IMG/VR virus record: IMGVR_UViG_3300008110_000081
Length of the DNA stretch: 64,000 bases
From: an uncultured virus (IMG/VR IMGVR_UViG_3300008110_000081)
Lineage: Duplodnaviria; Heunggongvirae; Uroviricota; Caudoviricetes
Reading direction: 5' to 3' (one strand)
The notes under the pieces were generated by a model. It did no database searches. It worked only from the letters and a program-made list of their open reading frames with translations, and had not been told where the DNA came from. Shown here piece by piece: positions 1-17,992 of this stretch; positions within the stretch are counted from its first letter, which is position 1, and every line of letters begins with the position of its first letter. The position numbers and the translations under genes were made by a program.

Positions 1-2
1 CC

Positions 3-3000
3 ACTGCCTGAAGTACCAATTGGTAAAATAATATCAGGTTTAGTACTTGTAGAAGCTTGTGGTTGCTTACTTTCAACAGGCTCTACAGTTGGAGCTACGT
101 CACCAGGAGCGACAAGGCCATCACGTATGATTGGTGTACCTAACTCATGACTAGTAGATACATATACCTTTTCAGAAGCTCTTGACATTGCAACATACTT
201 AAGTTGTTGACGTGTTTCTGGATCTCTATGACTATCAATAGTATCAGCAAGTATTAGTACTTTGTTATAGGTTCCTCCCTGTGACTTGTGGATAGTGTGA
301 GCATAACCATAGTCTAAAGTCTTTTTAACTTTTACTTTGTTGTTATCAGATACTAGATCTTTCATAAATGCAAGACTAGACTGAAGTTCATTTGCCTCAG
401 CAAAAAGTTGAGCAGAAGCACTAAACTGTCCGCGATTTCTAAAATCTTCAGCTTGTTTATTTAAACGGTCAATCTCATTCATGAAATCTTTTAACTTCTC
501 ATCTGACTCATTATTGCTTACAATAAATACACTCTTAGCAGACTCTTCTGGATCTAATACATTCTTAAGTCTAACTTGAAAACCATTAAAGCTGATTGTC
601 TTGTTACCTACAGGTAATGTTTTTACAGACTCCTCAATGCTATCAACTATATAGTCACCACTGTTTATAATCAATGGTTGCTTGGTCTTATAATCTATAT
701 CAAAGTTATTATTACCCATCAATAAATCACCTTTCACAAGTTGTTTATCAGCTTCATCACCGTAAAGTAACTCTCTTACTCTTCTGTTAATACCTGGAAG
801 AACAGCATTGGTTGCAGATAGAATTCTAAAATAAAGCTTGTTATCTTTAAACTCATCACTTGTGTAGTTTTCTCCAATTATTCTGTTTGTGAAATTAGCT
901 TCATCAGAGTATTCAACACCTTGCTCCCCAATCATTTTAGTCTGGTAATTAAAATCTTTACCATTTCTCAAGTTGGTCGCTTCTTCTAATATAGGATTGT
1001 CACCTGTTCTTTCAACTTTGGTAAGTTGTAACTGTGTTCCTTTCTCAAAAGTTTTAGACAAGTCTTTTTGCTTAACAGGTTTTAACTGAGCTGGATCACC
1101 CATGTAAATAATCTTAAGATTAAGAATCTGTTTAAACTTCTCTAAGAAATCATAAAGCGCGTCATTAACCATTGATGCTTCATCAACAATTAAGATATCA
1201 CCCTTTTGAACTTTAGCGTTTTTATTAAGCTTGCCATCTTTATCAAATGCTGCAAAATTCAAATCTCTTAAATCATAATCACCATCTTCAAATTTGATTT
1301 GACCTTTTAAACCAAACAATTTATGTAAAGTATATACTGCAGCTTTAGGATTCTTCATCTTAGTTACAGCATTAGCTCTGTGTGTTGGAGAACTGTATAG
1401 AGGTTTAACAAATTTCTTTTTTAAATAGTTATCAAAGATTGTGATGATACTAGTCTTACCTGTACCGGCATAACCAAGCAAGGTAATTTGATTATCATAC
1501 TCTCCTGGCTTGTTATAAAAATTCTCAAGAGATAACAACGCTTTCTCCTGTTGCTCATTAAGTTTGAATGGCGTATCAATAATAGTTCCGTCAGCAAATT
1601 TAAAAGTATTCTGAGCAGGTTGAGTAATGTTTTGTTGATCAGCATTTTTGTTAGAACTTTGACTTTGTACCTTAGCCATTATTTCTCTTTTAACACCATT
1701 CTCATCAGGCCAGTTCATTTTGTTATTGCTTACTTGAGATATAATAGCATTATTGTGTAATGGACTTACCCAGTACTTAACATCTCTATTGGTTAGAGAA
1801 ATAGGTTTATCCATAAGTAATGCAAAGTTGCTAGGACTAACTGCTAGTTTACTACCTATGTCAGGATTATAAAGTTGCCATGTTCCATTATCAAGCTTTT
1901 TAGTCACAATGTAATTATCACCTTTGTATTCAGCATATACTCCCACTTCTAGTTTAGGACCTGAAACAAGGTTATTAATGATTTTTTCCTGTTGTTTAAT
2001 CTCAGCTTTCATTCTTTCAGCTTCTTCTATTGAGATATCAGTTATAAGTGCGCTGTTTGGTATATTACCACTTATCATTTCATAACTCTTTTTAACAGGG
2101 AATGCAATAAGATTACTGTGTGTAGATAGGGAAGCATCAAATGCAGCCTCACCTTTTGTACCTTGACCAGCCGTAGTTCCATCAGTACCATTAAAGATAA
2201 TTACTTCTGTAGGTCTGCTTTCAAGTATGTCAGCAGCTTGAGTCATAGTTATAGCTTGCATAGTATCTTCTTTATTAAGGCTAAACTCATTAGCATGATA
2301 AAGTTTGTTACCAGCATTGTCAAGATAAAAATTATCTATTCTTGATTTTTTTTCGTTAAACATTAATTCTTTGGCACTTCCAACAGGATTGTCAACAACT
2401 TTATTTTTATCTGCAGCCATATCAAATTCAGGCACTGTGTAATCACGGTATGATGTTGAACCAGCTCTACTATTGATAGCTTTAAACTTTGTATAGTAAC
2501 GTTCAAAGGTAAGCTCATTCATGTTCTTCATAAAGTCACCCATGTATTCACTCATCATTGCAGTAAACATCTCTTGAGGAACTACTCTTGTTAATGAGAA
2601 TCTTCCACTAGTATTTAAACCTGATTGTAAAAACGCATATAGACCAAACTTGTTAAAGAATTCAGCAATACGAGTTCTCTCTTGAGCAGACTTAACATTG
2701 ATTCTTAACTTAGTAGGATCAGACATGTCTTTTAAGTTCTGATGTAACAAGTTCAACTTAGTACCATCTAAAAGAGAATCCAGTAATTGTAAGTTACCAA
2801 TACGGTTGGAATTGTTTTTATCATTACGGATTGTACCTGTAAGTATATTCATTAAGCTGTAGTTTTTTCTAAGCTCTGGATATAATGCAGCAATCTCATT
2901 AAATTGATCAGCCATAGAGGTACGACTTTGGAACATCTTCCAAGTGTTATAAGTATTCTCTAAAGCCATGTCACGTAGAGTCTCTTCATAAACTTCAGTA

Positions 3001-6000
3001 TTAATACGAGCTTCTCTCTTCTGTTTTGATTCACCTTCAAAAGTTGGCCCAGATTCTAATGCGTCTTTCAATTTGCGGGAAACATCAGCACGTTCTAATA
3101 ATACTGACCATTTTGTTTTACCAGGATACATAGCTCTTAATAACTCTCTCTCAATTACAAATTTGTAATAGGTATCAGGTGTAGGGAACGCTGCAGCATC
3201 AACATCAGCCGGTTTAATTATTGTACCGTCAGGAAGAAGGGTTGCAGTTTCTAAGCTTGTGCTGTTAGATAGTTTTGCAAAGTCTTGTCTCAACTTTACT
3301 TTATCCATATAAACAGTCAGTGCTCCCGTTTTATCCGGAGCTACAAACACACCATACTTAATACTAGGTGCTAACTTAACACCAAGAGTATCCTGAATTA
3401 CAAGACCTTTATAATCTTTAACCTTATCTATATCAAATTTGCGTATCTGATTTTGGAATAAAAAGCTTATCCAGTCATTTCTCAAGTTGTTTACAAATCT
3501 CTCATCATCACCAAAGGTTTCATCAACCTCATCTTTAAAGCCCATTTGTCTAGTCTTATTCAAGATCCACTTGTTAAGATCATCGTCATTTCTCAACTTA
3601 AATAGATTTTTCCATAAACCAATTTGAAAGTCTTGTGTAAAAAAGCTGCCTATTGGAGATTCCTCTTGGATAAGTTTTACAATTTCTGCTGGTAATTTAC
3701 CATCAGTTTGTAAATCTTTAATGATCTCATTTTTATTTTGAGCTTGAAAGATGTTGTTTGTTTTAGTTGTATCAACATTTAAAGCCATTTTAAACTTAGT
3801 TGCTGAATTAGTCATCTCTTCTACTTCAAGGAAGTGTAAGAATATAGCCTCATCTTTAACGTCATAATTGTAATTCAATGGAGCTTCTGAATCTGATGAT
3901 TCTTGTTGCTCTTTAACAGCATTAGCGTAAGCATCAATTTTATTTTTTAAATTAGCTTCAACTTTATCAGGATTAAAGAAATCAATCTCAGATCCTGTTT
4001 TCTTATCAGTAAGTTCTAAGGTACGTTTATCTAAAAACTCTTGCTTCTTCTCATTATTCTCATTAAAGACAGCCATTTGAGATGCGTCATAACCTAGTTT
4101 TTTAAAGATTACTTTACGCGCTTCACCTCTAAACAAGTTAGGATTATCAGTTCCTTTACCCATAGGTCCAGCAAATGTGCTTTTAGCTTGCTGCATTTCT
4201 TTTACATACTCTCTGATAATAGGTTGAGATACAAAATACACAGCTTGTTTTAAAGGTACACCAGCTTGAACTAAAAATAATAAAGATGGTGATATCTCTT
4301 TGTTCCCTTGTAAGTTAAAGATCCAAGCATCCTTAGCAATATCCACCCAGCCATTAATAAGCTGACCAATTATTGAAGATATACTGTTATCATTATTAAC
4401 ATCCATCAAGTGAGATAATGAAATTACATCACGGCCTTGATCATCTTGTAAAGTATTGTGATTAAATAATAAATCCAAACGTCTTTTAACATTCCTGCTA
4501 CCCCAATACTCGTAGTTCATTCTAGCACCAATACGGTTAAACACTGTATTAAAAGTATTATCTACAGCACCAAGACCTAAAGTTTGTTTACCAATACTGT
4601 TTGATGTATGCTTATACATGTTGTACGGAATCTCAAACAAACGGGTACCCGCAATACGAGAACTATTAGGTGCATCATATAAACGCTTCTTAGGATTATA
4701 ATCCATAACCTTAGATGAAAGCTCATCAGCAAGAGGCTTAACAATATCAGTACCATTAGGACGTACAAGACTCACGTAGTTCTCTTTAAGAGACAATATG
4801 TTTTTCATATCATCTAATATTCTGTTCTCAAGACCCTCTTCAGTTTTACTGTCAAATGGAAACTTTACATTTTTATCAGAGTTTTCAGCTAGTATTCTTA
4901 ATACAGCTTGATCTTCAACAGATAGTTCATCTGCTTTTCTGTTATCAATAACACGTTTAACATTCTCTGCTGATAGATCTAGGGTAGTAGATTTTTGTAA
5001 CTCTTCACGTTTACCAGATCCTTCTTCTAACCAGCTAGCCCAATTTATACCGGAGGAAATGTTAGGCATCATGAATGTGATCTTATCAATATCAAAGTCA
5101 CCACCAGATTTAGCTACAATCTCAGAAGGAAGTATAACAATGTTACCAGCTTCTCTAGGTAAGAACTCATAAACCTCAGCAAACTCCATAGAGTTATTCT
5201 CTTGAGTAGGAATACGTGGTCCAGTGATGCTAACCATTTTACGGTGATCACCTATATCTAACCAAGACTCATCTTTAAGCAGTTGATTTAATCTTTCAAT
5301 AGTACCAATCTCTTTACCATCTTTATCTTTCAAGTAAAGCAAGTTCTCAAAGCTACCTTGTAAAGCAATCTTAACTTTCATTGCTGAGGTTGTTCCATTT
5401 GGCCCACCTTTTCTTTTATAAAAAGCTAATCCATTAGTACCGTACTTAGCCTTTTCTTCATCAGTAAGTTTGCCGCGCAGAGTATCTTCAAAACCAGCAC
5501 CTGATACTTGGATCAGACCTTCCCCTTTAAACTTCTGTTTGACAAGACGTTTAACTACAATAGAGTTTAAGATCTTCTCAATCTTCTCTGCAGATAATGA
5601 ATAAGATAAATCATGAGCAAGTGTATTGTTTGTTCCTGATTTAATAAATCCTATCTCATGCTCAGCTAAGTCTTGTCTGTCTAATTCTTTTATAATGAAC
5701 TCAGCAAGTTTTTCATTGAATATAACATTACCATCTTCATCACGTTTAATGCTAGCTTCAGCCTCAAGCTTTTTCATCTTAAGCTTAGTTAAATCAGAAA
5801 GATCTTTCTCATAGTTTTTAACAAGTCTATAAAACTGAGAATTTTCTAATTTTTTTTCTAGAGAAAGTGATCTCCAAAGTTTTTCTCTTTGCTTAACAGG
5901 CAAGTGCATTTCATAATCTGTAGGTACACCAGCTTCCATTAAACCATTCTCAATTAACTTACGCATTTGAGTTGGGAATGTAACCTTACCTTTAAAGTAT

Positions 6001-9000
6001 GGAGCTATCTCTAATTGCTTTTTTAAGAATTGTAAGAACACAGTATTAGGTACCATATCTCCTGTAGCATCTACTGTTCTATCTTGACCATCAACACTAG
6101 AATAAAATTTATCTTTATCAGCTTTACCATCAGCGTTGATTCTTGTAAAGTTTGATATCTTAGATCCTGACTCAAACATAGCAAAGTCAATACCTTTTTC
6201 CATCATCCGTGTATGTAAAGCACCTAGATTTTTACCTTTAACTACATTAGGTATTAATGGGAATAAAGAAAACTTATAAAAAGCTGTTAACGGCGGGCCG
6301 TCAATAGCTTTACCATCTTTGTCTTTATGTTGGACAGGGCCCCAGTACTGATACTTTTTAGTAGGGAAGAAGTTAAGCACTTCACTGTAATCAACAGGTT
6401 CTTCATTTATGATTTTATTATAAAGTTTTTCTTGAGCTGGTGTCCATGATCCTTCTAATATTGCAGTAGCTTTGTAAAAGTCAAAAGTAATCCAGCCTTG
6501 AGCATCACCTTCATTCATCTCAGTAAAAGCATATACACTACCATTTTTAAATGGCTCATCTATTGTACCTAGCTTACCTGTTTCTTTTCCTTCCTTGTCA
6601 ACTTCAAAACCTAAAACTTTCTTAATAGCTTTTTCTCTGCTACCTAGTTTTTTTTCTTCAGAGTCTATTAAAGCATTAGCAATGTCTTCAAAGTACTCAG
6701 AACGTATATTGTTATCTTCAAGTATAGCTGACTGGAATGAACCATCACTAGCTAATTTCTTTGTTTGACCATCCTTGCCAAAGATTTTCATTTTCTCGGC
6801 ATATGTATTTGACCGACCAGGAATATTAGATAACCGGCTTTTATTATTTACATACTCAATAAATACTGGATCACTTGCAATTAATCCACCAGTAGAACCA
6901 GCACCTGCATTACGCTTATGGAACTCTTCTTTTTCTAATTTGTATTGTGCAATGTCTCCATAGATAACAGCCATTGACTCAATATTGTGTATCCAGCTGT
7001 TTACAACAAAAGATTTTATTAAAGCATTTTTAACAGTTTTATTAGTTACGTTTGCTTTATTAGCTTTATTAGCATCAGTTGCTGTTTTAACCATTAAACT
7101 CTTACTAATATAATTAGCACTGTTCATCATCCTACCAACTTGTTTGGATTGATTATCAAAGTACTTGGCTATTTCTCTATCAATATCATTACTAATATCT
7201 GGATCAACTGCTGCAGCTTCTGCTAAAGTAGGATAATTAGATAAGAATGCACGTGTCTTAGGACTAAGTACATCTTCAAAAATCACAAAGTTTTGACCCT
7301 CCTTTAAATATTTAGCGTCATATATTAAATCCTTTTGATCTTTAAGAGCTTTTAACTTAGTTATCCTTTGCATCTCAGCATCAATATATTTTTTTAAAAC
7401 ACGTGATGCATTACCATAACCCGGCACGTATTGACTACCATTATCTAAAGGCTGATTAATAAAATCAATTGTATCTACATAAGATTTATTATCTGATGAT
7501 CCTGGCGTTATTATATCACTTAACCATAAAGAGAAGGAAGTACCCTTATCAGCATGACGCATTAACTCTGGACGACCTATCACATTACTCACGTGAAAGT
7601 CAAGAATTAATTTTGTAAATTCATCAGCACTTGCTGAGGCAACACCTTCATCTCTCTTATCACTTACAATTGACACACCAGATAGATTAGACATGTTGAT
7701 TGCAGCCTTAAGATTGATATCAGATTTTTGATCACGCTTAACCCCAACCTCAGTAGTACTGCCTTTCTTATATTCATCCATTTTATATATGGAATTCAAC
7801 CAGACAGAAGCTTTTGCAAACGGGTTCTTATCAATATCTAAGTGAGCCATAAAAGGTTTACTAATTAGATCAGCATAATCTTTTGAACTGTTTATGGCAC
7901 TGATCATAATACTTATACTGTTGTGTAAGCTTTGTTCAAATTGGATATTACCTTCAGCATTATTTACAGCATAGTTAGACGCGTAGTCTGCAAATTTAAC
8001 TTCTTCATTAGCTAGGTCAGTTAATGTTGTTTCAGAACTTAAAGCCGCAATCTTATCAACAGCTGGATACTCTTTAAATATGTCTTTAAGATTATAAATC
8101 TTATCAGTACCTCTGTTTAAGATATTGTTTAATCTATCAAATATCCTAGTGGCTTTACCTTTACCTTTATTAACTATATCTCTTAGTTCATCAGAATCAC
8201 TAAGCTCTATACCAATTGCTCTAAAAAACTCATAAGAATTTTTAGCATCTTCAAAAATATATTTACCAGTACGGTCTTTTACACCAAACTGTTCAATTAC
8301 TTTTTTCACATCAAGATAAATCTCATTAGCTTTTTGAGGATCTCTCTTTCTATAATCAGAAGTTACTGTACTAAATGTATTTGTCCAACGTGTTTGAGCT
8401 ATACGAGACACTGAGTTATTAGATCCAATCTTGATTGAGTACTCATCAAGCTCACGACCCTCAATATCTTTTTCTCTAAACACAGTCATCTGCATTAAAG
8501 GAATCTCAGCTTTGTTAAACACGGTCCAGAACTTAATCCATAAATCTGTTTCAGCTGCTGTGTGAGTTTTAACAGGTCCTAATTTTTTTAACAGGTCTGC
8601 GATAATAGGATCTTTACCTGCTGCAGCTTGTAATTTTTCATACATCTCTGAAGCACTCATTGTACCTTTAAGTGTTCTAGATATTCTATTCCATACAATA
8701 GAAGGATCACTAAGCTCTTGAATACCAAAACTGTTCATAACAGGCTTTGTACCTTCCCACTTGTGAATTGTACTTAGTACATACTTAACCTCAGGCGGTG
8801 CCATATCATATGAACCAACATCATTACCTGGTCTGTCAAACTTTTCACTAGCTTTTATTAAAGCATCAACTTCACTAACCTCGTCAAGTAACTCTGCTCT
8901 ATCCTCCTCTGTCAACAACCTGGATGTTTTTAAGTGGTAACCTATTACATCTTTGCCATCTTTGTTATTTGCTAAGTTTGTAAGATCACCAAAGTTATTA

Positions 9001-12000
9001 ATTGCCCATTGTATACCTGTAATATCTTGTTCAAGAGCTATAACTTCATACTCATTATCCGGCTTAGCTTTTGCAGCAGCTAAATCTCTATTCAAATTAG
9101 ACAATACCTCATTTTCAAAAATAGATTTAATATACTTATAAACTTCAAGAGCTCTTGTTTTATCTTTCATCAAGGTAGTTGTGTAACTATATACTTGTCT
9201 ATGTACTCTTGTATCTTCTTTTAAATTTCTTGTATTAGTATATGAAGATATGATTGAGTTAACACTACTCATTATTTTATTAGTAGTCTCAAAATCAAGC
9301 TCAGGCATGTTTTCATCATTCTTACTAGCAATCATAGCATGATCTAAAGCACCTATAGTCTTATCTCTATTCTCAACATTGAAGTTGTATCCAGAAAGAT
9401 TACCAAGCTTTAAGTTCTCATACATTGCTTGTATTTTAGGAATACCTAGTGGACTATAATTAACATCATTGATGTTTACACCGGAGAAAAGCTCCTTCAA
9501 GAAGTTCATGATTCTTGTAAAGATACCGTTCTTAGTTGATGACGTTTTGTCTTTGATCTTACCGCCAGACATCATGTATGCTCTAAAGTCTTCAGCTAAA
9601 TATTCTTCTAGTTGTTTCCATTTAGCATCAGCAAAAGCTACGCGCTTACCATTGTAGTCTGTAAAAGAACCTTTTTTCTTACGCGCTTCTTCATACATTG
9701 CTTCTCTCTCTTCAGGTGTAAGGAATGTCTGAGTAAATCCGTGCCATGCTTCATGGTATAAATCCGTATAGTCACCGCTAACATCTGGGTTATTAAAGTA
9801 TCTAAATAGTGTAATACCATTAACGGCCCACCTAGCAGCTGGTCCAGGTTTTTGCGCATTCAATGCAGCTAGTACAACTTTGAATGGAAAGTGTTCTTTT
9901 AATGGACTTTTAGCATACCACTCTGCAGCAGCATCTAATTGTTCTTTAGAACCACGAGCACCTGATAACTTTAACCTTGAATTTCTTTCAAAGTCAGATT
10001 CATTACTCATGTCATTAAGGCTATTTAATATATCCTCTGGAGATAATGATGCTGTAGTCTTTGTAGTTAATGGTTCAATAGTTGGCTCAGCCGGTTTAGT
10101 CTCTGCAGCTTTTGGTTCTGCTGGTGCAAACTTTAATAAAGGGCTTATTTTTTTATCATAGTCTTCCCAAATCTTTTCATACTTCTCCCGTTCTTCCGTA
10201 GTTGGAATTAAGAAAGGATTTACTTTACCATCTACTTTATAAGCATCTATGTTAGGTATTTCTCTTTTTAGTAACTCTTGCTCTTCTGCTCTTAATCTAG
10301 CAATTTCTTCTTGGTTATCTACAGCTCCTGAGTTTTTTTCTCCTCCTGCCAACTTAATCATAGACTCAGCAGTAGGTGAAAAAGTAACTGATGAATTTAC
10401 AACCTCAATCTTTCCTTTCTCATCTGTGTTATTATAGTTGTAAGGAACAGCATTAGTTGTGAAATTATTTTTAAGAAAGTCTTTGTATGATGCATTTTTT
10501 GTATTTAAAATAACTTTATCACCCTCTTGTGTAAAAGAGATTTCATCATAGCCTGGCTCAATAAGTTTGTCAACAATAACAATTGATGGTACATTTGCAT
10601 GAAAATAATCATACTCAGGTTGTCCATTAGTTCCTACAAAATCATAATTAGTACCTTTTTGTATTGCATACACACCAGGTTTATTAACTCTTTCTAAATC
10701 ATTAGGCTTTATAGTTTTTATACCATTCTCATCAGTTTCATACTCAGCATATACAATTTGAGTATTTAAAGCACTAGCAGCTTTCAATGCTTTTGGTTTA
10801 GTATTAATTGATTTGTCTTCAGGATATCTACCGTTCTCATCATAAACAATCATGCCTGTACTTAACTGTTTTCTTATAGCAGCAGCTGCAGCTTCTTGAC
10901 CAGACTTAGATCCATCAAACTTTAAAGGGTAACGTGTTCCGTCAACCATTATGTTTATAGTACCATCTTTATCTTCATAATTAATAGTACCACTTTTTCT
11001 ATCTGCCATGAAATACACATGGTGTAAATCATTCACAATAAACTGATTAATCAGTTCTTCTCTTCTACCAATAGGAACAGGCTGTAGCACACCGTTAATA
11101 GTCATCCACAAATCTTTTGTGAATAAATCAATAACACTGTTAAGAATGTCATCTTGTTGTACTAAAGGTTTTTTATTAATAGATATTGGCTCATCAATAT
11201 TTGGATAATCAAAATAAACACCAGACTGATATACATTAGATGTTGCTGATTGAATTTCTTTTATAACACGTGGTTGGAAACCTTGTTCAAAATTAATATC
11301 TTTAAGTGGCGTTGTTACATAAGGTGAGTATGGAACAAACCCTTCAGAAGTACCTGTCATTACAGACAATAAAAATTTATCAGGGTTACTAGAATTAGCT
11401 ATAACATAATCACGCATCTTTTCTAGTACAGCATACTCTTTTTTTAATTCATCAGTAGCTCTATTTTTAAGTTCTTCATTTTCCTTATCCGTTAACTTTT
11501 TAGTGCCATACAGAGGATTATAGCTTTTAGCCATCATCTCAAGCTGCTCTTGAATACTTTTAGCAATTACTTTTACTGCCTCACTACCAGTTTTTTTAGA
11601 TATAGCACTGCTGTAATAAGGATCATTATTTACATTTTTATTAATGTATTTTTCTAAAGCCTCTTTATCTTCATGACTTATGTAATTACCTTTAGCGTCC
11701 ATTGGAGCTTTACTCTTAGCTCTTAAGTAAGAGAGTTGACCATCTTTAACTACGGTTCCTTCTGGATCAAATTGTATAGGCACACCTGCTTCATTGGTAA
11801 GGACCATGTAAATATCATACTTAGATAAGAATGGTGTCCAACCTTTTTCAGTTTTAGGAATCAATGGTGCATAATTTAATCTTAAGGTATCACCGTTCAT
11901 AGCTCTTAAGTACACACCACCTTCAACACCATCAAGTTTCATCTCAGAACTGTCATTGATACCTTGTTCAAATAAAGCTTGGTTAATCTTTTTCTGTACT

Positions 12001-12539
12001 GTAAAGTTTAAAGCTTCTTCAACTTTTGACTTCATCCAATCATTATCTTTTGGATTCTCATAATTTTTTATATCTACACGGAAAGTCTGGAAGGCCCAAG
12101 TCATAAATCTATTAAAACTCTCTTTGATTTTTGAAGTAGGTCTTTCATCTGTAACTTTTATAGAAGCGGAAGACTTAAGAGTTGAATCATCAATAGCAAC
12201 AGGTTTAGTTGCACCAACAGTTTCTCTTACAGCATCTGTATTGTTCTTAAATTTTTTTATTAATGCCAGGTTATCACTTTCAAGATCTGGATTTTTTGTT
12301 TCAATTTTATCAACTAATTCAGTATCTAAAGCAAGAATTAATTTAACTATTGTTGGTGCCATTGCTGCAGCACTAATAGCTGTAGCTTCATCTTCTGATG
12401 ATTCTTTAACAAACTCATATACTTCTTTTATATATGCGGGTAAATCAATTACCTGATCTTCTTTAGCTTTATCATATAAATCACCAGCTACTAAATCAAA
12501 TAGGGCATCTCTTATTTCTTCTTGTGATAAACAACTCAT
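3..12539 (-). CDS. Giant virion-packaged RNA polymerase polyprotein (>=4179 aa, 3' end outside window): zincin + two-barrel vRNAP + SF1B helicase + start of a P-loop domain
   Basis: ATG at 12539 (MSCLSQEEIRDALFD...). Same frame holds HEAWH (9741-9755), GPRIPTQ..SGGDFDIDK (DFDID 5085-5099), GYAGTGKT (1452-1475), ILIVDEASM, GDPAQL, YAHTIHKSQG, YVAMSRA and ILPIGTSGS at the window edge. Absence from the ORF track fits an ORF with no stop in the window. DFDID is the catalytic motif of crAss-like vRNAPs (phi14:2 gp66 type). Confidence 0.93.
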   Translation of the reverse strand, partial: MSCLSQEEIRDALFDLVAGDLYDKAKEDQVIDLPAYIKEVYEFVKESSEDEATAISAAAMAPTIVKLILALDTELVDKIETKNPDLESDNLALIKKFKNNTDAVRETVGATKPVAIDDSTLKSSASIKVTDERPTSKIKESFNRFMTWAFQTFRVDIKNYENPKDNDWMKSKVEEALNFTVQKKINQALFEQGINDSSEMKLDGVEGGVYLRAMNGDTLRLNYAPLIPKTEKGWTPFLSKYDIYMVLTNEAGVPIQFDPEGTVVKDGQLSYLRAKSKAPMDAKGNYISHEDKEALEKYINKNVNNDPYYSSAISKKTGSEAVKVIAKSIQEQLEMMAKSYNPLYGTKKLTDKENEELKNRATDELKKEYAVLEKMRDYVIANSSNPDKFLLSVMTGTSEGFVPYSPYVTTPLKDINFEQGFQPRVIKEIQSATSNVYQSGVYFDYPNIDEPISINKKPLVQQDDILNSVIDLFTKDLWMTINGVLQPVPIGRREELINQFIVNDLHHVYFMADRKSGTINYEDKDGTINIMVDGTRYPLKFDGSKSGQEAAAAAIRKQLSTGMIVYDENGRYPEDKSINTKPKALKAASALNTQIVYAEYETDENGIKTIKPNDLERVNKPGVYAIQKGTNYDFVGTNGQPEYDYFHANVPSIVIVDKLIEPGYDEISFTQEGDKVILNTKNASYKDFLKNNFTTNAVPYNYNNTDEKGKIEVVNSSVTFSPTAESMIKLAGGEKNSGAVDNQEEIARLRAEEQELLKREIPNIDAYKVDGKVNPFLIPTTEEREKYEKIWEDYDKKISPLLKFAPAEPKAAETKPAEPTIEPLTTKTTASLSPEDILNSLNDMSNESDFERNSRLKLSGARGSKEQLDAAAEWYAKSPLKEHFPFKVVLAALNAQKPGPAARWAVNGITLFRYFNNPDVSGDYTDLYHEAWHGFTQTFLTPEEREAMYEEARKKKGSFTDYNGKRVAFADAKWKQLEEYLAEDFRAYMMSGGKIKDKTSSTKNGIFTRIMNFLKELFSGVNINDVNYSPLGIPKIQAMYENLKLGNLSGYNFNVENRDKTIGALDHAMIASKNDENMPELDFETTNKIMSSVNSIISSYTNTRNLKEDTRVHRQVYSYTTTLMKDKTRALEVYKYIKSIFENEVLSNLNRDLAAAKAKPDNEYEVIALEQDITGIQWAINNFGDLTNLANNKDGKDVIGYHLKTSRLLTEEDRAELLDEVSEVDALIKASEKFDRPGNDVGSYDMAPPEVKYVLSTIHKWEGTKPVMNSFGIQELSDPSIVWNRISRTLKGTMSASEMYEKLQAAAGKDPIIADLLKKLGPVKTHTAAETDLWIKFWTVFNKAEIPLMQMTVFREKDIEGRELDEYSIKIGSNNSVSRIAQTRWTNTFSTVTSDYRKRDPQKANEIYLDVKKVIEQFGVKDRTGKYIFEDAKNSYEFFRAIGIELSDSDELRDIVNKGKGKATRIFDRLNNILNRGTDKIYNLKDIFKEYPAVDKIAALSSETTLTDLANEEVKFADYASNYAVNNAEGNIQFEQSLHNSISIMISAINSSKDYADLISKPFMAHLDIDKNPFAKASVWLNSIYKMDEYKKGSTTEVGVKRDQKSDINLKAAINMSNLSGVSIVSDKRDEGVASASADEFTKLILDFHVSNVIGRPELMRHADKGTSFSLWLSDIITPGSSDNKSYVDTIDFINQPLDNGSQYVPGYGNASRVLKKYIDAEMQRITKLKALKDQKDLIYDAKYLKEGQNFVIFEDVLSPKTRAFLSNYPTLAEAAAVDPDISNDIDREIAKYFDNQSKQVGRMMNSANYISKSLMVKTATDANKANKANVTNKTVKNALIKSFVVNSWIHNIESMAVIYGDIAQYKLEKEEFHKRNAGAGSTGGLIASDPVFIEYVNNKSRLSNIPGRSNTYAEKMKIFGKDGQTKKLASDGSFQSAILEDNNIRSEYFEDIANALIDSEEKKLGSREKAIKKVLGFEVDKEGKETGKLGTIDEPFKNGSVYAFTEMNEGDAQGWITFDFYKATAILEGSWTPAQEKLYNKIINEEPVDYSEVLNFFPTKKYQYWGPVQHKDKDGKAIDGPPLTAFYKFSLFPLIPNVVKGKNLGALHTRMMEKGIDFAMFESGSKISNFTRINADGKADKDKFYSSVDGQDRTVDATGDMVPNTVFLQFLKKQLEIAPYFKGKVTFPTQMRKLIENGLMEAGVPTDYEMHLPVKQREKLWRSLSLEKKLENSQFYRLVKNYEKDLSDLTKLKMKKLEAEASIKRDEDGNVIFNEKLAEFIIKELDRQDLAEHEIGFIKSGTNNTLAHDLSYSLSAEKIEKILNSIVVKRLVKQKFKGEGLIQVSGAGFEDTLRGKLTDEEKAKYGTNGLAFYKRKGGPNGTTSAMKVKIALQGSFENLLYLKDKDGKEIGTIERLNQLLKDESWLDIGDHRKMVSITGPRIPTQENNSMEFAEVYEFLPREAGNIVILPSEIVAKSGGDFDIDKITFMMPNISSGINWASWLEEGSGKREELQKSTTLDLSAENVKRVIDNRKADELSVEDQAVLRILAENSDKNVKFPFDSKTEEGLENRILDDMKNILSLKENYVSLVRPNGTDIVKPLADELSSKVMDYNPKKRLYDAPNSSRIAGTRLFEIPYNMYKHTSNSIGKQTLGLGAVDNTFNTVFNRIGARMNYEYWGSRNVKRRLDLLFNHNTLQDDQGRDVISLSHLMDVNNDNSISSIIGQLINGWVDIAKDAWIFNLQGNKEISPSLLFLVQAGVPLKQAVYFVSQPIIREYVKEMQQAKSTFAGPMGKGTDNPNLFRGEARKVIFKKLGYDASQMAVFNENNEKKQEFLDKRTLELTDKKTGSEIDFFNPDKVEANLKNKIDAYANAVKEQQESSDSEAPLNYNYDVKDEAIFLHFLEVEEMTNSATKFKMALNVDTTKTNNIFQAQNKNEIIKDLQTDGKLPAEIVKLIQEESPIGSFFTQDFQIGLWKNLFKLRNDDDLNKWILNKTRQMGFKDEVDETFGDDERFVNNLRNDWISFLFQNQIRKFDIDKVKDYKGLVIQDTLGVKLAPSIKYGVFVAPDKTGALTVYMDKVKLRQDFAKLSNSTSLETATLLPDGTIIKPADVDAAAFPTPDTYYKFVIERELLRAMYPGKTKWSVLLERADVSRKLKDALESGPTFEGESKQKREARINTEVYEETLRDMALENTYNTWKMFQSRTSMADQFNEIAALYPELRKNYSLMNILTGTIRNDKNNSNRIGNLQLLDSLLDGTKLNLLHQNLKDMSDPTKLRINVKSAQERTRIAEFFNKFGLYAFLQSGLNTSGRFSLTRVVPQEMFTAMMSEYMGDFMKNMNELTFERYYTKFKAINSRAGSTSYRDYTVPEFDMAADKNKVVDNPVGSAKELMFNEKKSRIDNFYLDNAGNKLYHANEFSLNKEDTMQAITMTQAADILESRPTEVIIFNGTDGTTAGQGTKGEAAFDASLSTHSNLIAFPVKKSYEMISGNIPNSALITDISIEEAERMKAEIKQQEKIINNLVSGPKLEVGVYAEYKGDNYIVTKKLDNGTWQLYNPDIGSKLAVSPSNFALLMDKPISLTNRDVKYWVSPLHNNAIISQVSNNKMNWPDENGVKREIMAKVQSQSSNKNADQQNITQPAQNTFKFADGTIIDTPFKLNEQQEKALLSLENFYNKPGEYDNQITLLGYAGTGKTSIITIFDNYLKKKFVKPLYSSPTHRANAVTKMKNPKAAVYTLHKLFGLKGQIKFEDGDYDLRDLNFAAFDKDGKLNKNAKVQKGDILIVDEASMVNDALYDFLEKFKQILNLKIIYMGDPAQLKPVKQKDLSKTFEKGTQLQLTKVERTGDNPILEEATNLRNGKDFNYQTKMIGEQGVEYSDEANFTNRIIGENYTSDEFKDNKLYFRILSATNAVLPGINRRVRELLYGDEADKQLVKGDLLMGNNNFDIDYKTKQPLIINSGDYIVDSIEESVKTLPVGNKTISFNGFQVRLKNVLDPEESAKSVFIVSNNESDEKLKDFMNEIDRLNKQAEDFRNRGQFSASAQLFAEANELQSSLAFMKDLVSDNNKVKVKKTLDYGYAHTIHKSQGGTYNKVLILADTIDSHRDPETRQQLKYVAMSRASEKVYVSTSHELGTPIIRDGLVAPGDVAPTVEPVESKQPQASTSTKPDIILPIGTSGS

Positions 12540-12541
12540 TT

Positions 12542-15500
12542 TTAACTAATTTTACAAGATTTGAATTTATTACTTATATCTTTTTTTCTTTGCTCAGTAG
12601 GTGTTTCAGCACTTTTTTTAGCTCTTGCTAAAGCCTCAGCAGGATCAATTTTATCTTTTAAAGCTTTACCTTCTGATTCAACATCAGCTTTTTCATCTTC
12701 AGTAAGATCTGGAGCTGTTGTTACATCAGCTACAAAGTCACCCACAATGTACTTGATTATATTTTTATAATCATCAGGGTTCACCTTAATTGCGTTTGCC
12801 ATATTGTTAGTTTGTTTGTCTTGAGGGGTTAGCAAATATACAGTATTTCCATCCATTTTCCCAACAATCATATTAGTATATCCGTTATTTAATAACACAA
12901 TTGTGTCAGGAATTAAATCAGTAAATTCTAACTTGTTTGCCAGTTCTACTTTTTTGTTCTGCTCTAGTTTATCAAGTAAAGCAGAGTTAAAGTTCTCACC
13001 GAATACAGAGCTGTAATAGTTCTTCTGACCAATGGTTCCTGTAGCTAAAACCTCACGGGCCTTATCCATAAACTCTTCAAGTTGTTCACCGGATTTAATC
13101 TCATTATAAAGTTCAGATAAGTCATCACCTACAGGTTCATCTATCTGAGGAAGTTCTGCTCTTCTCATACCTAATAAATCCATTAGTTCTGGACTCATTC
13201 CTTCCGTTGTAGCATCAATCTGCTGAGTTATTTTATAAAGCTCTTTAGCACTTACAGCATTTTTAATTATGTTAGACCACTTTTCAAAATGAGGATCTGT
13301 CACAGGAGCAGCAGCTATATCTTCCACAACAACAGCTTTACCTGCTGGTGTGCCTAAGTCAATAATATATTCTTCATTTGTAGCTAAATCTTTTAATACA
13401 ATGATACGTTCTGCTATACCTGTGTCAGGATCTACATTAGCACCCTGGTCTTCAACAACCTCCATATCAACTTTAGTAAGATCAATTGAGGTACCGTCTT
13501 TTCTTTGTACGGTTCCTGTAAAGCTATACCGTTTACCGGCGGACCATTTGTTTGCCGGAGCTGTGGTCTTCTTAGTAGAAGCTGCTGGTGTAGTTGTTGT
13601 AGTTCTAGTTGCAGGTTTACCACCATTGTAGTCATCAATAATTTTACCAGCTCTGTCTGATGTTTGAACATAATCTTCAAACTCTTGAGAGTCTACTAGT
13701 TCATCATCTGTTAATCCTAAAGTACCACCTTTATTTACCTTATAATAGGCGCGGTAATCAGCAGCTAAGTTTTTAAATAATACAGAAGCATCTTTCTGGA
13801 TTATACTAATAGGAGTACTACGAGTTATTGTGGTAGTTGCTGTTCCCCCTATAGCACCTGTAGTAGATGCAGCAGGCCCAGCTATATCAGCTTCTAGCTT
13901 ATTTGTTATCAAATACATTGCTTCATCCAATAAAGATGAATCAACTCTAGGGCCAAATATCTTTGTTAAAAAACGTTTAACCGTGTCAGTAAACTCTTCC
14001 CATATAGATTTCCCTGTAGCGGCGTAAGGAATGTTACTAAGCATAGCCTGGAACGTATCATTAGACAACGCTTCAGCCACAAACTCTTCAGCATTCATTG
14101 AACCGTATAAAGGTTTTGCACCAAATTGTTGTTGAGCTTCAGGTGTTCTTATATAGTTTTTAACTTCCGCTAATAACTTTTCAATATCAGCTTTGAACTT
14201 AGGGTCTGTATTTAAACCTTTTACTGTAACTTGATGTACTAATTCATGCAAGATAACATGCTCAATTGGGTGTCCTTTTTCACCTTGTCTATAATCATCA
14301 GATGAGTAACGTGCATCTACTACAGTCTCATCAGTTGCTCCATTATAAGATCCTGGTGTAGAATGGTTGTTAACAAAAGTGACTTTGGTGTCTGGCTTAA
14401 CCACAGTAAGCATACGTCTAGCTAAAGCTTTCTCTCTTGGTGTAGAATACTTACCATTTATTATTGCTCTTAATACATCATGTGCTGGTACATTTGATTT
14501 GTCAGCTGTAGGATCAAACCCAAATTCTTTAGCATGATCTTCATAAGAGCGCTTATCTCTTTCATATTTTTTTCTAGATGATGCGTTGTACTTACTCATC
14601 TCTCTAGCTTCAGCAGATGTACCAGCTTCTTTAATCTCTTTACCCTTTGTAGTTTTATTAGCTAAGCGGGCATATCTTTCAACAATCTCAAGTAACGTAT
14701 TATATTTTTCTGTACCTGGTTTTATAAGTTCTAGGTTATTGGAGGAAGCGTCATAAAAATCCACAATGTTAAACTCTTTTAGTTTATCAATGTCTTCTGG
14801 ATTAACAAAAGCTTGATTATCAAAAATCTCATTAAGCATGTCATTGTCATCTTTCATTTTTTCAAATGTCTCCAATGCTTCTTTACGCTTCTCAAGTTTT
14901 TGAGCTTGTCTCATTTTTTGAACTTCATACTGAATACCTTTATAGTACTCAAACATATCAGGATTACTCAAAGTGTTTATTGTATTAACAATACGCATTT
15001 TGTCTCTGCCTAAACGCAAGAAGTCTTTAATGTCCACAAAAGCTTCATTCAACTGATCATCAAAGGTGTAACCCTTATTCATCTTAGCTACATTCTTTAT
15101 GTATTTTTGAAATGACCCATGTAATCTGGCTATAGCATTATTTAACTCATCACCTTCTACCTCTAAATATTCAGGACTTACACCAGGAGCATCTTTACTT
15201 ACAGTGTAATTATTTTTGTTAAACTTTTTAAGTTTACCATTTTTATTGATGTACAATTCACCTTTAGCGTCAGTCTCAATTTTAAATTCTTGACCACTGT
15301 ATTTCTCAATAATTGTAGCGCCGGGTAACATTCTAGCTCTTTCTTTTCTGAGCATTCTTTCTTCCTCAGATATATTAGCTTTATGATCTGAGTCTAGATG
15401 TAAAAGATAAGTTTCAACATCTCCTTGCCAAGTTTCTAAAAAATCAAGTTGTTCTTTTAACTCAACAGCTTTAGCTTTCTGTTCAGGTGTGCCAAGCTCC

Positions 15501-17992
15501 ATAGCTGTAATCTGATTTTGTAAACTTGTTTTAGTATCAATAGATTGTATAGGATCTATCAACGCAGTTAAGTCAACAGCTGTAACATTAGCCATAGGAA
15601 TACCACCACGACTAGTGTTTAATATATTTTGATAAGCTGAATCTACACCAGCAAGCTTGTTGGCAATACCAACCATTCTCTCACCAGTTCTATCAAAGTC
15701 TTCTGTAGCAAATAAGATATCAGATACAGCTTGTTCATGAGCCATGTATTTAAAGTATTCATCTTCATAGGCATCAGGATATTTTTTAGGATCAAACATC
15801 CACGGGTTGTGTGGATTAGGATTAATCTTTTTAGCTTTATCATATCTAGCTTGATATGTTTCAGCTCTACTTTTTAAAGTCTGTAACTTTTTTCTAGCAT
15901 CACCTGCTTGAGATTCATCAAGATTATAAGCGTCTGCTAAATCTTTATCTTCAAGACTAAGCATATCATCAACATGATCTGTAATCAGTTTCATGTTTCC
16001 TGTTTTGGCAAGAATCTCAAAGTGATTAATTTGAGTTTCATCACCCATGTCATGAGCTCCTACTTTATCTCCTTCCGCAAGTCTGTTTTTCTTTTCTTGA
16101 TTTGTTAATTTTATAGCTGCAGCAAAAGATGATCTCTCATCTCCAGCTCCATAAGTCAATGCATGTTCAGCAATAGTATTGCCGGCATTCATTACCTCAT
16201 TCTTATTTTTTTCACGTTGTTGTTTTACACGGTCAGCTTCTGTTTCAGAATTCCATTCAGCACCTACCTTACCACCTGTTACACCATAAGCTGCAGCTTT
16301 AGTACCACGCACTCCTAAGTTCTTACTATTTTTTATAGCAGCTCCACCTCCTTGAATAAGAGATCCCATTAAGTAACCTTGAGCAAAAGTGTCAAGACCT
16401 TTTAGTGAAAACTGATCACCAATACCTTTACCTATTTCAGAAAGTACACTTGCATGTACAGCACTAACAGGATCACTGTATATCTTATCATAGTAACTAG
16501 AGTAACCTTGAGTAATAACTTCTTGAGCATTTTCTTGTAAAGCCTCACCAATATTACCAACCATGTACTTACGGCTCCAAGGTAAGTAAGGTGACTTAGT
16601 TAAAAAGTTAGCAACTCTTTGAGCACCTGTTCTTTTTCCTTCTTGTAACAACGCGTTTCCTGCTGTAGCTGCTGTAGCTTTCTTAAAAGCTTTACCTGCA
16701 ACTTTTAAAAATCCTTCTGTGCCTACTTCTGTAAAAGCTTTTGCTAATTGAGCGCCAGGACGTATACCTTCAAATAAATCTTCAAAGGCCAACTTGTTTG
16801 TAAAATAGATTGTTAAATCATTAGCTCCAATAACAGAAGCCTTTAAAGATTGTGCTGTGTCAAATATACGTTTAGCTTCATCACCTTCTGGCATTCTGCC
16901 ATTCTCAGCATAAAACTTATCAATCATATTATCTTGAAACTCACTAGCAGCGCCTTCACCTTCTAGCTTAGCTTCTGAGTGAGCTACATTTAACTCACGC
17001 ATATCTCTATAAAAACTACCAAAGCTTTTACTAATCTTAGCACTAGACTTTAAATTATTAAAACCATGAGTGTTGTTTAGCAAGTGACTGGTTGTCTCCA
17101 TACTACGTTCTAAAGGATTGGCCCATTTAGCAATATCTTTAGTTGTATCCCAAGCTTTTGCGGCAGTAAAAAAGTCTTTAGCTTTATCTACATTCTTAAG
17201 TTCTTTGATAAAATTAGCTGTACCTTTTAAAGCTTTAGCAATTTTGCCAATACCCATAGCGTTTCTAGTTGCTGCTAAATAAGCTACCTCAGGAGTTGCT
17301 GTACCAAATGAAGCTACTTCAACAGCGGCTAATGCGGCATCTTCTACTATTAACTCACCCATGATACCTACAGTGTAAGCACTGTTAATACCAAAGTTTG
17401 TTACCCAACCACCAACACCACCTCTTGTAGATGAACCAATAGCTAAACCTTTCTCCATATTCTCATGAGCTTCTTTTTCATCACCCCATACAGATTTAGC
17501 ACCGCCCCAAGCTAAGCCGGCCCATTGACCTTTCATTCTATTAAAGTCATCCCACCAAGATGAGTTCTCATTATAGTGAGTTTCATTATCACGGTATGGA
17601 GAAAATCCTAATTCTTTAAACTTTGGATGATTATAATATCTATCAAAGTTCATGTTCTTGCTACCAGCACCATAAGAGTAAGTACGTCCATACTTATACT
17701 TATCTTGGGACCAATTAGGATCTTGCATCATATCTCTAAGAGCTAATGCATAATCCATAGTCCCGGCTTTTTTAGCACCAGGGTTAGGACCTGTTTGATA
17801 ACTACCTTGAATATTAAGATTAGCATTTATACTAGGAGGAAGGCCTTGTGGTATAAGTGAATTTACAACAGGCATCTCAGCTCTTAGTATTGCTAAAGGA
17901 TCTGTTGATGAACCTTGCTCAGGTAATCCAGGTGTTATTGGCGCGGATTGTAATACTGGTTCTGTGGGTTGTGGTGTAACTTCTTCTGCCAT
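12542..17992 (-). CDS. Giant ejection/cargo protein with zincin metallopeptidase domain (1816 aa)
   Basis: HVILHELVH (HExxH, 14234-14248) followed by EEFVAE; Gly/Ala-rich hydrophobic N-terminal segments; directly upstream of the vRNAP gene as in crAss-like phages. Confidence 0.8.
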   Translation of the reverse strand: MAEEVTPQPTEPVLQSAPITPGLPEQGSSTDPLAILRAEMPVVNSLIPQGLPPSINANLNIQGSYQTGPNPGAKKAGTMDYALALRDMMQDPNWSQDKYKYGRTYSYGAGSKNMNFDRYYNHPKFKELGFSPYRDNETHYNENSSWWDDFNRMKGQWAGLAWGGAKSVWGDEKEAHENMEKGLAIGSSTRGGVGGWVTNFGINSAYTVGIMGELIVEDAALAAVEVASFGTATPEVAYLAATRNAMGIGKIAKALKGTANFIKELKNVDKAKDFFTAAKAWDTTKDIAKWANPLERSMETTSHLLNNTHGFNNLKSSAKISKSFGSFYRDMRELNVAHSEAKLEGEGAASEFQDNMIDKFYAENGRMPEGDEAKRIFDTAQSLKASVIGANDLTIYFTNKLAFEDLFEGIRPGAQLAKAFTEVGTEGFLKVAGKAFKKATAATAGNALLQEGKRTGAQRVANFLTKSPYLPWSRKYMVGNIGEALQENAQEVITQGYSSYYDKIYSDPVSAVHASVLSEIGKGIGDQFSLKGLDTFAQGYLMGSLIQGGGAAIKNSKNLGVRGTKAAAYGVTGGKVGAEWNSETEADRVKQQREKNKNEVMNAGNTIAEHALTYGAGDERSSFAAAIKLTNQEKKNRLAEGDKVGAHDMGDETQINHFEILAKTGNMKLITDHVDDMLSLEDKDLADAYNLDESQAGDARKKLQTLKSRAETYQARYDKAKKINPNPHNPWMFDPKKYPDAYEDEYFKYMAHEQAVSDILFATEDFDRTGERMVGIANKLAGVDSAYQNILNTSRGGIPMANVTAVDLTALIDPIQSIDTKTSLQNQITAMELGTPEQKAKAVELKEQLDFLETWQGDVETYLLHLDSDHKANISEEERMLRKERARMLPGATIIEKYSGQEFKIETDAKGELYINKNGKLKKFNKNNYTVSKDAPGVSPEYLEVEGDELNNAIARLHGSFQKYIKNVAKMNKGYTFDDQLNEAFVDIKDFLRLGRDKMRIVNTINTLSNPDMFEYYKGIQYEVQKMRQAQKLEKRKEALETFEKMKDDNDMLNEIFDNQAFVNPEDIDKLKEFNIVDFYDASSNNLELIKPGTEKYNTLLEIVERYARLANKTTKGKEIKEAGTSAEAREMSKYNASSRKKYERDKRSYEDHAKEFGFDPTADKSNVPAHDVLRAIINGKYSTPREKALARRMLTVVKPDTKVTFVNNHSTPGSYNGATDETVVDARYSSDDYRQGEKGHPIEHVILHELVHQVTVKGLNTDPKFKADIEKLLAEVKNYIRTPEAQQQFGAKPLYGSMNAEEFVAEALSNDTFQAMLSNIPYAATGKSIWEEFTDTVKRFLTKIFGPRVDSSLLDEAMYLITNKLEADIAGPAASTTGAIGGTATTTITRSTPISIIQKDASVLFKNLAADYRAYYKVNKGGTLGLTDDELVDSQEFEDYVQTSDRAGKIIDDYNGGKPATRTTTTTPAASTKKTTAPANKWSAGKRYSFTGTVQRKDGTSIDLTKVDMEVVEDQGANVDPDTGIAERIIVLKDLATNEEYIIDLGTPAGKAVVVEDIAAAPVTDPHFEKWSNIIKNAVSAKELYKITQQIDATTEGMSPELMDLLGMRRAELPQIDEPVGDDLSELYNEIKSGEQLEEFMDKAREVLATGTIGQKNYYSSVFGENFNSALLDKLEQNKKVELANKLEFTDLIPDTIVLLNNGYTNMIVGKMDGNTVYLLTPQDKQTNNMANAIKVNPDDYKNIIKYIVGDFVADVTTAPDLTEDEKADVESEGKALKDKIDPAEALARAKKSAETPTEQRKKDISNKFKSCKIS

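Follow-up and report, generated by a model that had tools for sequence, protein, structure and literature searches.

The window analysed here, a 64,000-nucleotide stretch of DNA from the uncultured virus IMGVR_UViG_3300008110_000081 (IMG/VR), carries on its minus strand a giant gene in which a virion RNA polymerase of the type known from phage phi14:2 (gp66) and a complete Dda-like helicase of superfamily 1B (SF1B) share one reading frame. This gene is genuine and belongs to a deep-branching crAss-like phage. The frame is continuous and under purifying selection, both enzymes are recognized by homology, and the helicase has kept its catalytic motifs. The initial annotation, made from the sequence alone, spoke of a fused helicase; the common frame stands, but the helicase is not simply appended to the polymerase, since a conserved C-terminal domain follows it. 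It belongs to a cassette that is inserted between the polymerase body and this domain of ∼135 amino acids (aa) and is exchanged by recombination. The architecture is not claimed as new, because public records already contain and half-annotate such polymerase-helicase giants; the fusion is a new instance of it, of moderate interest.

The reading frame was followed in the open reading frame listing and by translation. The minus frame 12539..3, which the initial annotation had singled out for this check, runs for 4179 codons with zero stops and continues past the edge of the window. Within window positions 1-12000 the giant frame stands alone, and no other frame of at least 100 aa overlaps it. 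The gene described earlier is thus real and open, but its end lies outside the window: a near-identical virus record, G001, supplies 462 further codons beyond window base 1 (full-length gene at L002:2338-16260) and gives a protein of 4641 aa, about 525 kDa as estimated from its length. The part in the window (3..12539, minus) encodes residues 1-4179, and all statements on residues beyond 4179 rest on G001, which is 100% identical to the window over positions 1-22537 and nearly identical up to 33887, with two indels. An in-frame stop or a mis-assembly between the two enzymes had been named as grounds for rejecting the fusion. The same frame is present in G001 and is also continuous in a second, diverged contig (L012), where, in the well-aligned stretches of polymerase, linker and helicase, the ratio of nonsynonymous to synonymous substitution rates (dN/dS) is 0.10-0.27. 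A search for loci of close relatives returned 2 only, and megablast of window positions 1-12539 against GenBank phages gave zero matches.

The region that holds the gp66-homologous polymerase spans residues 1250-3000 (3540..8792, minus), with matches to gp66 covering residues ∼1250-2800. A profile of residues 1900-3000 and nine related loci was compared with the Protein Data Bank (PDB) and matched gp66 (6vr4_A) over chain residues 872-1693 with an expectation value (E) of 4.4e-67, and a profile of residues 1250-1900 matched gp66 236-912 (E 2e-39). BLASTP against the phi14:2 proteins paired residues 2434-2787 with gp66 1314-1666 (E 5e-13) and residues 1982-2128 with gp66 932-1066 (E 6e-9), and tblastn reached the 'putative RNA polymerase' of crAss001 (E 2e-14). 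When the whole protein was searched against the PDB with phmmer, 6VR4 was missed, and only the 10-sequence profile recovered it; Pfam and PHROGs gave nothing usable over the polymerase and N-terminal parts. The catalytic metal-binding motif DFDID lies at residues 2481-2485 (5085..5099, minus) and aligns to the DFDID of gp66 at 1361-1365. Residues D2481, F2482, D2483, D2485 and K2486 are invariant across 28 giants. Given the long alignment to 6vr4_A, two double-psi beta-barrels are probably present in the one chain. The profile match and the aligned DFDID bear out the polymerase identity proposed in the initial annotation, and gp66, at 2180 aa vs 4641 aa, is indeed about half as long.

The helicase domain is complete and occupies residues 3644-4132 (144..1610, minus), with the Walker A sequence GTGKT, DEASM, GDPAQL, HKSQG and the arginine of SRA. 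All nine helicase motifs named from the sequence were found in their places on the minus strand, as was DFDID: LNEQQ (residue 3660, window 1562-1548), GYAGTGKT (3689), SPTHRA (3717), TLHKL (3737), DEASM (3786), GDPAQL (3814), LTKVER (3839), YAHTIHKSQG (4079) and YVAMSRA (4115, window 197-177). LNEQQ lies 1179 codons past DFDID, which fits the earlier figure of about 1200. The proposed comparison with SF1B profiles gave Pfam AAA_30 (E 3e-17, 63 bits with a curated cut-off of 27), AAA_19 and UvrD_C_2 (E 1e-10, above their curated cut-offs; 41 bits vs 27.4 for UvrD_C_2) and PHROG_325, 'Dda-like helicase' (E 1.2e-71 over residues 3562-4127). PDB chain 9kwf_B was matched across residues 6-428 of 434. 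An AlphaFold model of residues 3290-4170 has a predicted local distance difference test score (pLDDT) above 90 across the helicase, and its best Foldseek matches are T4 Dda (8s9i_A, E 5.5e-25; 3upu_A, E 1.5e-24; template modelling score (TM) 0.74-0.76 on the target), followed by RecD2 (TM ∼0.5) and Pif1. No variation was seen at Walker A, the DE pair, motif III, the QG of motif V or the motif VI arginine, either in a 50-sequence mixed alignment or in the 28 giants, whose overall identity is only 19-93%. Nothing else in these 28 aligned proteins is conserved nearly as well as the helicase. It is predicted to be an ATP-driven 5'-3' SF1B helicase with an intact motif set and a Dda-like fold. Ahead of it, a small beta-strand unit (residues 3544-3575; 1815..1910, minus) was modelled with moderate confidence (pLDDT ∼70) and adjoins the start of the PHROG_325 match at residue 3562.

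The cassette extends over residues ∼3510-4500, its in-window part being 3..2012 (minus), and contains the small beta unit, the helicase, a kinase resembling polynucleotide kinase (PNK) and a further module, termed module A. Close relatives without a helicase do not have it: their alignment covers residues 1-∼3500 and continues directly with the last ∼135-250 residues, resuming at about residue 4505. A polymerase-anchored search returned 696 proteins, the best 120 of which are 40-97% identical. The C-terminal domain, module B, was found in 106 of these best 120 relatives and ends at most 15 residues from the C-terminus in 76. Polymerase core and module B are separated by 373-600 aa in 81 of the 106 and by 602-1674 aa in the remaining 25; in the giant studied here the separation is 1505 aa. 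Since the helicase-less relatives skip residues ∼3510-4500 and module B is conserved, the skipped residues are regarded as a cassette in a variable slot.

Comparison with L012 (window 144-2012 against L012:8736-11429) places a mosaic break near residue 3640. The two share 95-97% identity in polymerase and linker, with a synonymous divergence (dS) of 0.09-0.11, whereas the helicase is 82% identical with a dS of 0.58 and the kinase region is unrelated. A further relative, P0003, is 94% identical up to residue 4194 and 98% identical in module B, and between these parts NADAR is listed in place of the kinase family. Two giants, P0097 and P0103, have polymerase and kinase without helicase, P0097 also with module A, so parts of the cassette travel separately.

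The initial annotation described a fusion of two enzymes. Polymerase and helicase do share the frame, but a kinase and two more modules, all or nearly all beyond the window, had been overlooked. The P-loop domain (AAA_33, PNK-like; residues 4171-4307) has its first nine codons at 3..29 (minus) and the rest outside the window. It matched AAA_33 (E 8e-17, 62 bits, cut-off 27) with Walker A present, phrog_505 'polynucleotide kinase' (E 2.6e-16) and the PDB kinase chains 4gp7/4jst (E 1e-5); fold support is weak (Z 6.1-6.4 to Pnkp1 and T4 PNK). Module A (residues ∼4320-4510) and module B (∼4512-4641) lie together at L002:15295-16260, outside the window, and are predicted to fold with confidence (pLDDT 85-98). 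A joint search with both gave 453 relatives at E<=0.001, some within other giants and some that are small free proteins. Among 10 relatives scanned, no Pfam family covers either module, and the sole Pfam match of that scan, NADAR in P0220, falls outside the module. Neither module had a Foldseek match at E<=0.001 and module A had none in the Atlas; the folds are not claimed as new. A wide VIA search with the C-terminal part gave matches dominated by the kinase.

A short sequence, QP[QA][AQ], marks the joints between these parts. It occurs 3 times in the 4641 residues, always at a module boundary: as QPAQ just before the helicase (residue 3640; 1611..1622, minus), as QPQA in the Pro/Thr/Ser-rich linker between helicase and kinase (residue 4159; 54..65, minus), and between kinase and module A (residue 4323; L002:15304-15315, outside the window). 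The expected number is 0.07, and three copies were reached in 0 of 5000 shuffles. The junctions may serve as recombination joints or as sites of cleavage. Copies two and three have most of ∼24 nucleotides in common, and comparable QPQA junctions are present in the giants P0004 and P0275.

Fusions of this type are not restricted to the window. A helicase-anchored search, with the helicase and C-terminal region as query, scored 1135 candidates among proteins of 2552-8122 aa and identified 373 at E<=0.001. Hidden Markov models (HMMs) of polymerase and helicase both matched in 111 of the 120 listed (of 373), with the polymerase always first; the remaining nine comprise five with helicase only, three with polymerase only and one with neither. 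Among viral-contig loci, both domains lie in one frame in 18 of 82, counting L023 and L015, while five are giants without a polymerase match (L035/L082, L049, L076, L085) and the rest are free genes of 360-670 aa. In L023 (L023:7991-18907) the order is reversed, with Kinase-PolyVal (residues 442-607) and helicase (669-1200) ahead of the polymerase (2184-3096). The polymerase-helicase frame of L015 (L015:5291-11467) is broken 13 times, in every case by TAG and never by TAA or TGA; it was counted as a fusion only with TAG read through, and fits a TAG-reassigned crAss-like phage. In GenBank and RefSeq, polymerase and helicase also share one frame in cr50_1 (QOR58058.1, 4774 aa, 'DNA helicase') and cr118_1 (YP_010110531.1, 'exonuclease V').

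The origin of the helicase was approached with a tree of 89 domains, obtained by a quick LG+G4 search with support from the Shimodaira-Hasegawa-like approximate likelihood ratio test (SH-aLRT) only. Rows covering fewer than 380 profile positions were omitted, as were 12 loci that were duplicates (L011, L017, L030-L033, L082), fragmented (L015) or partial (L047, L056, L080, L088). One clade of 35 rows (SH-aLRT 90) contains all 29 helicases that are fused to a polymerase. The other rows of this clade are three giants without a polymerase HMM match and three free helicases from ∼180 kb contigs, and because of this mixture a single origin of the fusion does not follow from the tree. The nearest outgroups are stand-alone SF1 helicases of Crevaviridae cr127_1 and Intestiviridae cr110_1, encoded beside UDG and DNA polymerase.

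The giant protein probably travels whole inside the capsid and is ejected from it together with the DNA, since its sequence and position match phi14:2 gp66 and the polymerase proteins found in the crAss001 virion, where mass spectrometry detected the three polymerase-associated proteins (PMC10172136). The initial annotation had suggested that a co-ejected helicase could open the template, strip off proteins or help draw DNA into the cell. Tentatively, and short of a firm preference, we favour a helicase that stays tethered and makes template accessible as the genome enters. Such a helicase would be present at the first moment of infection, held next to the polymerase, and would act as an ATP-driven 5'-3' motor on the incoming DNA. 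The motor would expose single-stranded DNA (ssDNA), and it may also clear bound proteins, so boosting early transcription. This reading is favoured because gp66 prefers ssDNA and QDE-1 depends on a helicase together with RPA. In vitro, gp66 transcribes ssDNA or denatured DNA and hardly any double-stranded DNA, the authors propose that the single strand displaces a domain blocking the cleft, and QDE-1, a related polymerase, needs RPA and the QDE-3 helicase (bioRxiv 10.1101/2020.03.07.982082).

Several observations weigh against a template-exposing helicase. Among the best 120 of the 696 polymerase relatives, a helicase is found in 7 by our own HMM and in 14 by PF13604 in precomputed lists; both counts are given because the own HMM, built from the fused clade, misses seven more divergent SF1 domains, four of which were rechecked. 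The remaining 113 relatives, without an own-HMM helicase match, have a median length of 3505 aa. One relative, P0273, is 77% identical and has no helicase, and the entire records of phi14:2, cr108_1, cr10_1 and cr1_1 contain no such helicase. The survey of orthologues suggested by the initial annotation therefore finds the fusion recurrent among helicase-bearing giants and optional among relatives of the polymerase. Being optional and missing from phi14:2, the phage with the characterised virion polymerase, the helicase is no general requirement of this polymerase, and we infer that it is an accessory and not an obligatory partner. The outgroup helicases of the fused clade sit in crAss replication modules. 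Cargo proteins partly unfold when leaving the capsid (PMC10172136), so that helicase activity after ejection presumes refolding. Finally, enzymes sharing the slot, namely the kinase here and NADAR, AlkB-type and ART-PolyVal domains in relatives, have no evident link to transcription and fit a general 'passenger enzyme' logic equally well.

That logic follows the published concept of polyvalent proteins (PMC5512222). The polymerase giant would be a delivery scaffold, and the enzymes of the cassette would be independent early tools that protect or repair the genome or counter host defence, uncoupled from transcription. This is a possible explanation, though we think it the less likely one; it ranks close behind the tethered helicase and stays close because the slot is variable, the fellow enzymes are unrelated and many relatives are helicase-less. 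The slot between polymerase body and C-terminal domain varies and recombines, and in relatives precomputed Pfam lists place NADAR, AlkB-type, acetyltransferase, ART-PolyVal and zeta/AAA_33 kinase domains, among others, in it. The helicase adjoins Kinase-PolyVal in L023 and NADAR in L035, Dda-like helicases also occur in the five giants without a polymerase match, and P0097 and P0103 retain the kinase in the absence of a helicase. A mere passenger, however, would sit poorly with a helicase that is the most conserved part of the giants. Its repeated occurrence with the polymerase, in either order, suggests that the combination as such is selected, and no Pfam 'PolyVal' signature domain was found in the giant protein at E<=1. 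Another view is that the ordinary SF1 replication or recombination helicase of the lineage became fused, to be freed by proteolysis or to act late, with its location incidental. Its nearest outgroups are replication-associated stand-alone helicases, no second SF1 helicase was detected at E<=10 in the composite 103-kb genome (window plus G001), and the flexible linkers with repeated QPQA that flank the modules could be cleavage sites. We consider this unlikely nonetheless, as the helicase is embedded, with the conserved C-terminal domain of the polymerase giant after it, the giant gene belongs to the structural (late) block, and close relatives as well as the Suoliviridae cr10_1 and cr1_1 manage without any SF1 helicase. 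An artefact or relic, whether by mis-assembly, a lost stop codon or decay of the helicase, is scarcely credible: the same frame recurs in independent contigs and in hundreds of cluster representatives, purifying selection acts across the junction, the catalytic motifs are all invariant, and the helicase is modelled with confidence throughout.

The tethered helicase can also be placed in a wider scheme, which is rather doubtful at present. The polymerase would double as an injection scaffold with a defined, recombining 'cargo slot' before the C-terminal domain, which is loaded with different enzymes. The Dda-like helicase would be a recurrent load that possibly makes ssDNA both as template and as release from self-inhibition, a natural fusion counterpart of QDE-1/QDE-3, and the QPQA sequences would be module joints for recombination or proteolytic release.

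Outside the cassette, the N-terminal region carries HEAWH, a zincin-like HExxH motif (residues 929-933; 9741..9755, minus) that is followed by a conserved E...LAEDFR stretch and is nearly invariant among giant homologues. Y928, H929, E930 and E979 are kept at at least 90% in the 28 giants, the motif is present in long frames of 16 loci, and the HExxH-bearing regions gave zero Pfam family matches. The giant gene closes a crAss-type structural block on the minus strand, in which TerL (54858-57065), portal (52070-54853) and capsid protein (49031-50656) were identified and which ends with three very large genes of 996, 1816 and 4641 aa. No family match was found for the 996-aa gene (17995..20985, minus). 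The 1816-aa gene directly upstream of the giant (12542..17992, minus) shows weak similarity to phi14:2 gp65 around the HExxH of the latter (E 1.4e-6). In G001 the giant is followed by a 1938-aa gene (L003:269-6085) with an HExxH at residue 179, after which the strand switches; both this gene and gp65 thus carry further copies of the motif. Within 1-33887, G001 and the window differ at two places only: at 22537-22538 a segment of ∼60 bases in G001 is missing from the window, and at 26406-26432 there is a break with ∼900 non-aligning bases in G001. Both fall within large unassigned genes (22520-25066 and 25074-26846). No terminal repeat was found in the composite genome.

TerL is at most 25.8% identical to that of any GenBank phage, the nearest being Suoliviridae cr1_1 and cr55_1 and Flavobacterium phage FpV4. 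Membership of Suoliviridae was rejected on this ground, and the phage is therefore called crAss-like without a family. The cultured TerL relative FpV4 has a weak 284-aa helicase-like frame (L097/L098, 78209-79027; E 4e-5), which resembles a remnant or a highly diverged version.

Among known systems, phi14:2 gp66 (PDB 6VR4) is the closest to the polymerase part: DFDID is common to both, profile homology extends over gp66 236-1693, and the gene likewise ends the structural block. The layout recurs in the phi14:2 genome, where the annotation of g067, g066 and g065 derives from tandem mass spectrometry of virions. In contrast to the giant, gp66 stands alone at 2180 aa between gp67 and gp65, in a phage without a Dda-like helicase; the giant has ∼1200 extra residues with the HExxH ahead of the polymerase, plus the cassette and the C-terminal domain. 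The Suoliviridae cr50_1 and cr118_1 share the order of the giant, with the polymerase first and a Dda-like helicase in the same frame, but their helicases are only 33-42% identical to that of the window, whose phage is another lineage, and in cr50_1 the helicase is almost C-terminal (residues 4229-4717 of 4775). T4 Dda (3UPU, 8S9I) matches in structure over its entire chain and has the full SF1B motif set; it differs as a free protein of ∼440 aa in replication and recombination, with a sequence identity of ∼20%. Neurospora QDE-1 with QDE-3 and RPA offers a functional parallel only, in which a polymerase of the same two-barrel class has its ssDNA supplied via a helicase, although the two are separate proteins. 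QDE-3 is a helicase of the RecQ class (SF2).

Polyvalent proteins are very large polypeptides that combine several enzymes and are believed to enter host cells together with the DNA (Iyer et al. 2017, PMC5512222), and the giant resembles them in joining polymerase, helicase, kinase, HExxH region and two further modules in one chain. The PolyVal domains absent from it occur in relatives, with Kinase-PolyVal in L023 and ART-PolyVal (PF18760) in P0057 and P0371 according to precomputed lists. In the passages covered, however, the helicases named for polyvalent proteins are SF2 (SWI2/SNF2-type, DinG/RAD3-like) or UvrD-like, and no crAss-type polymerase is mentioned; the terms SF1, Dda and RecD do not appear in that article at all (0 occurrences; PMC5512222). 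'Several large, multidomain proteins' and polyproteins have been described for the crAss transcription block (PMC7886860; gp66 preprint). No sentence on a polymerase-SF1B fusion was found in the searchable text of the literature, a scope that leaves aside figures and some supplements.

Purified gp66 works on single strands only, and early promoters have no common motif (bioRxiv 10.1101/2020.03.07.982082). Natural polymerase-helicase fusions in hundreds of uncultured crAss-like phages offer a concrete candidate, open to experiment, for the activity that would let crAss-type virion polymerases start on duplex DNA, and the cassette layout provides a matched natural control in close relatives that lack the insert. 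The polymerase in these giants is hidden behind database labels like 'exonuclease V' or 'DNA helicase'. Further attention would be best spent on the cargo-slot layout and the QPQA junctions. If the slot idea is true, the giants would amount to a catalogue of enzymes delivered into the host by gut and environmental phages at the very start of infection.

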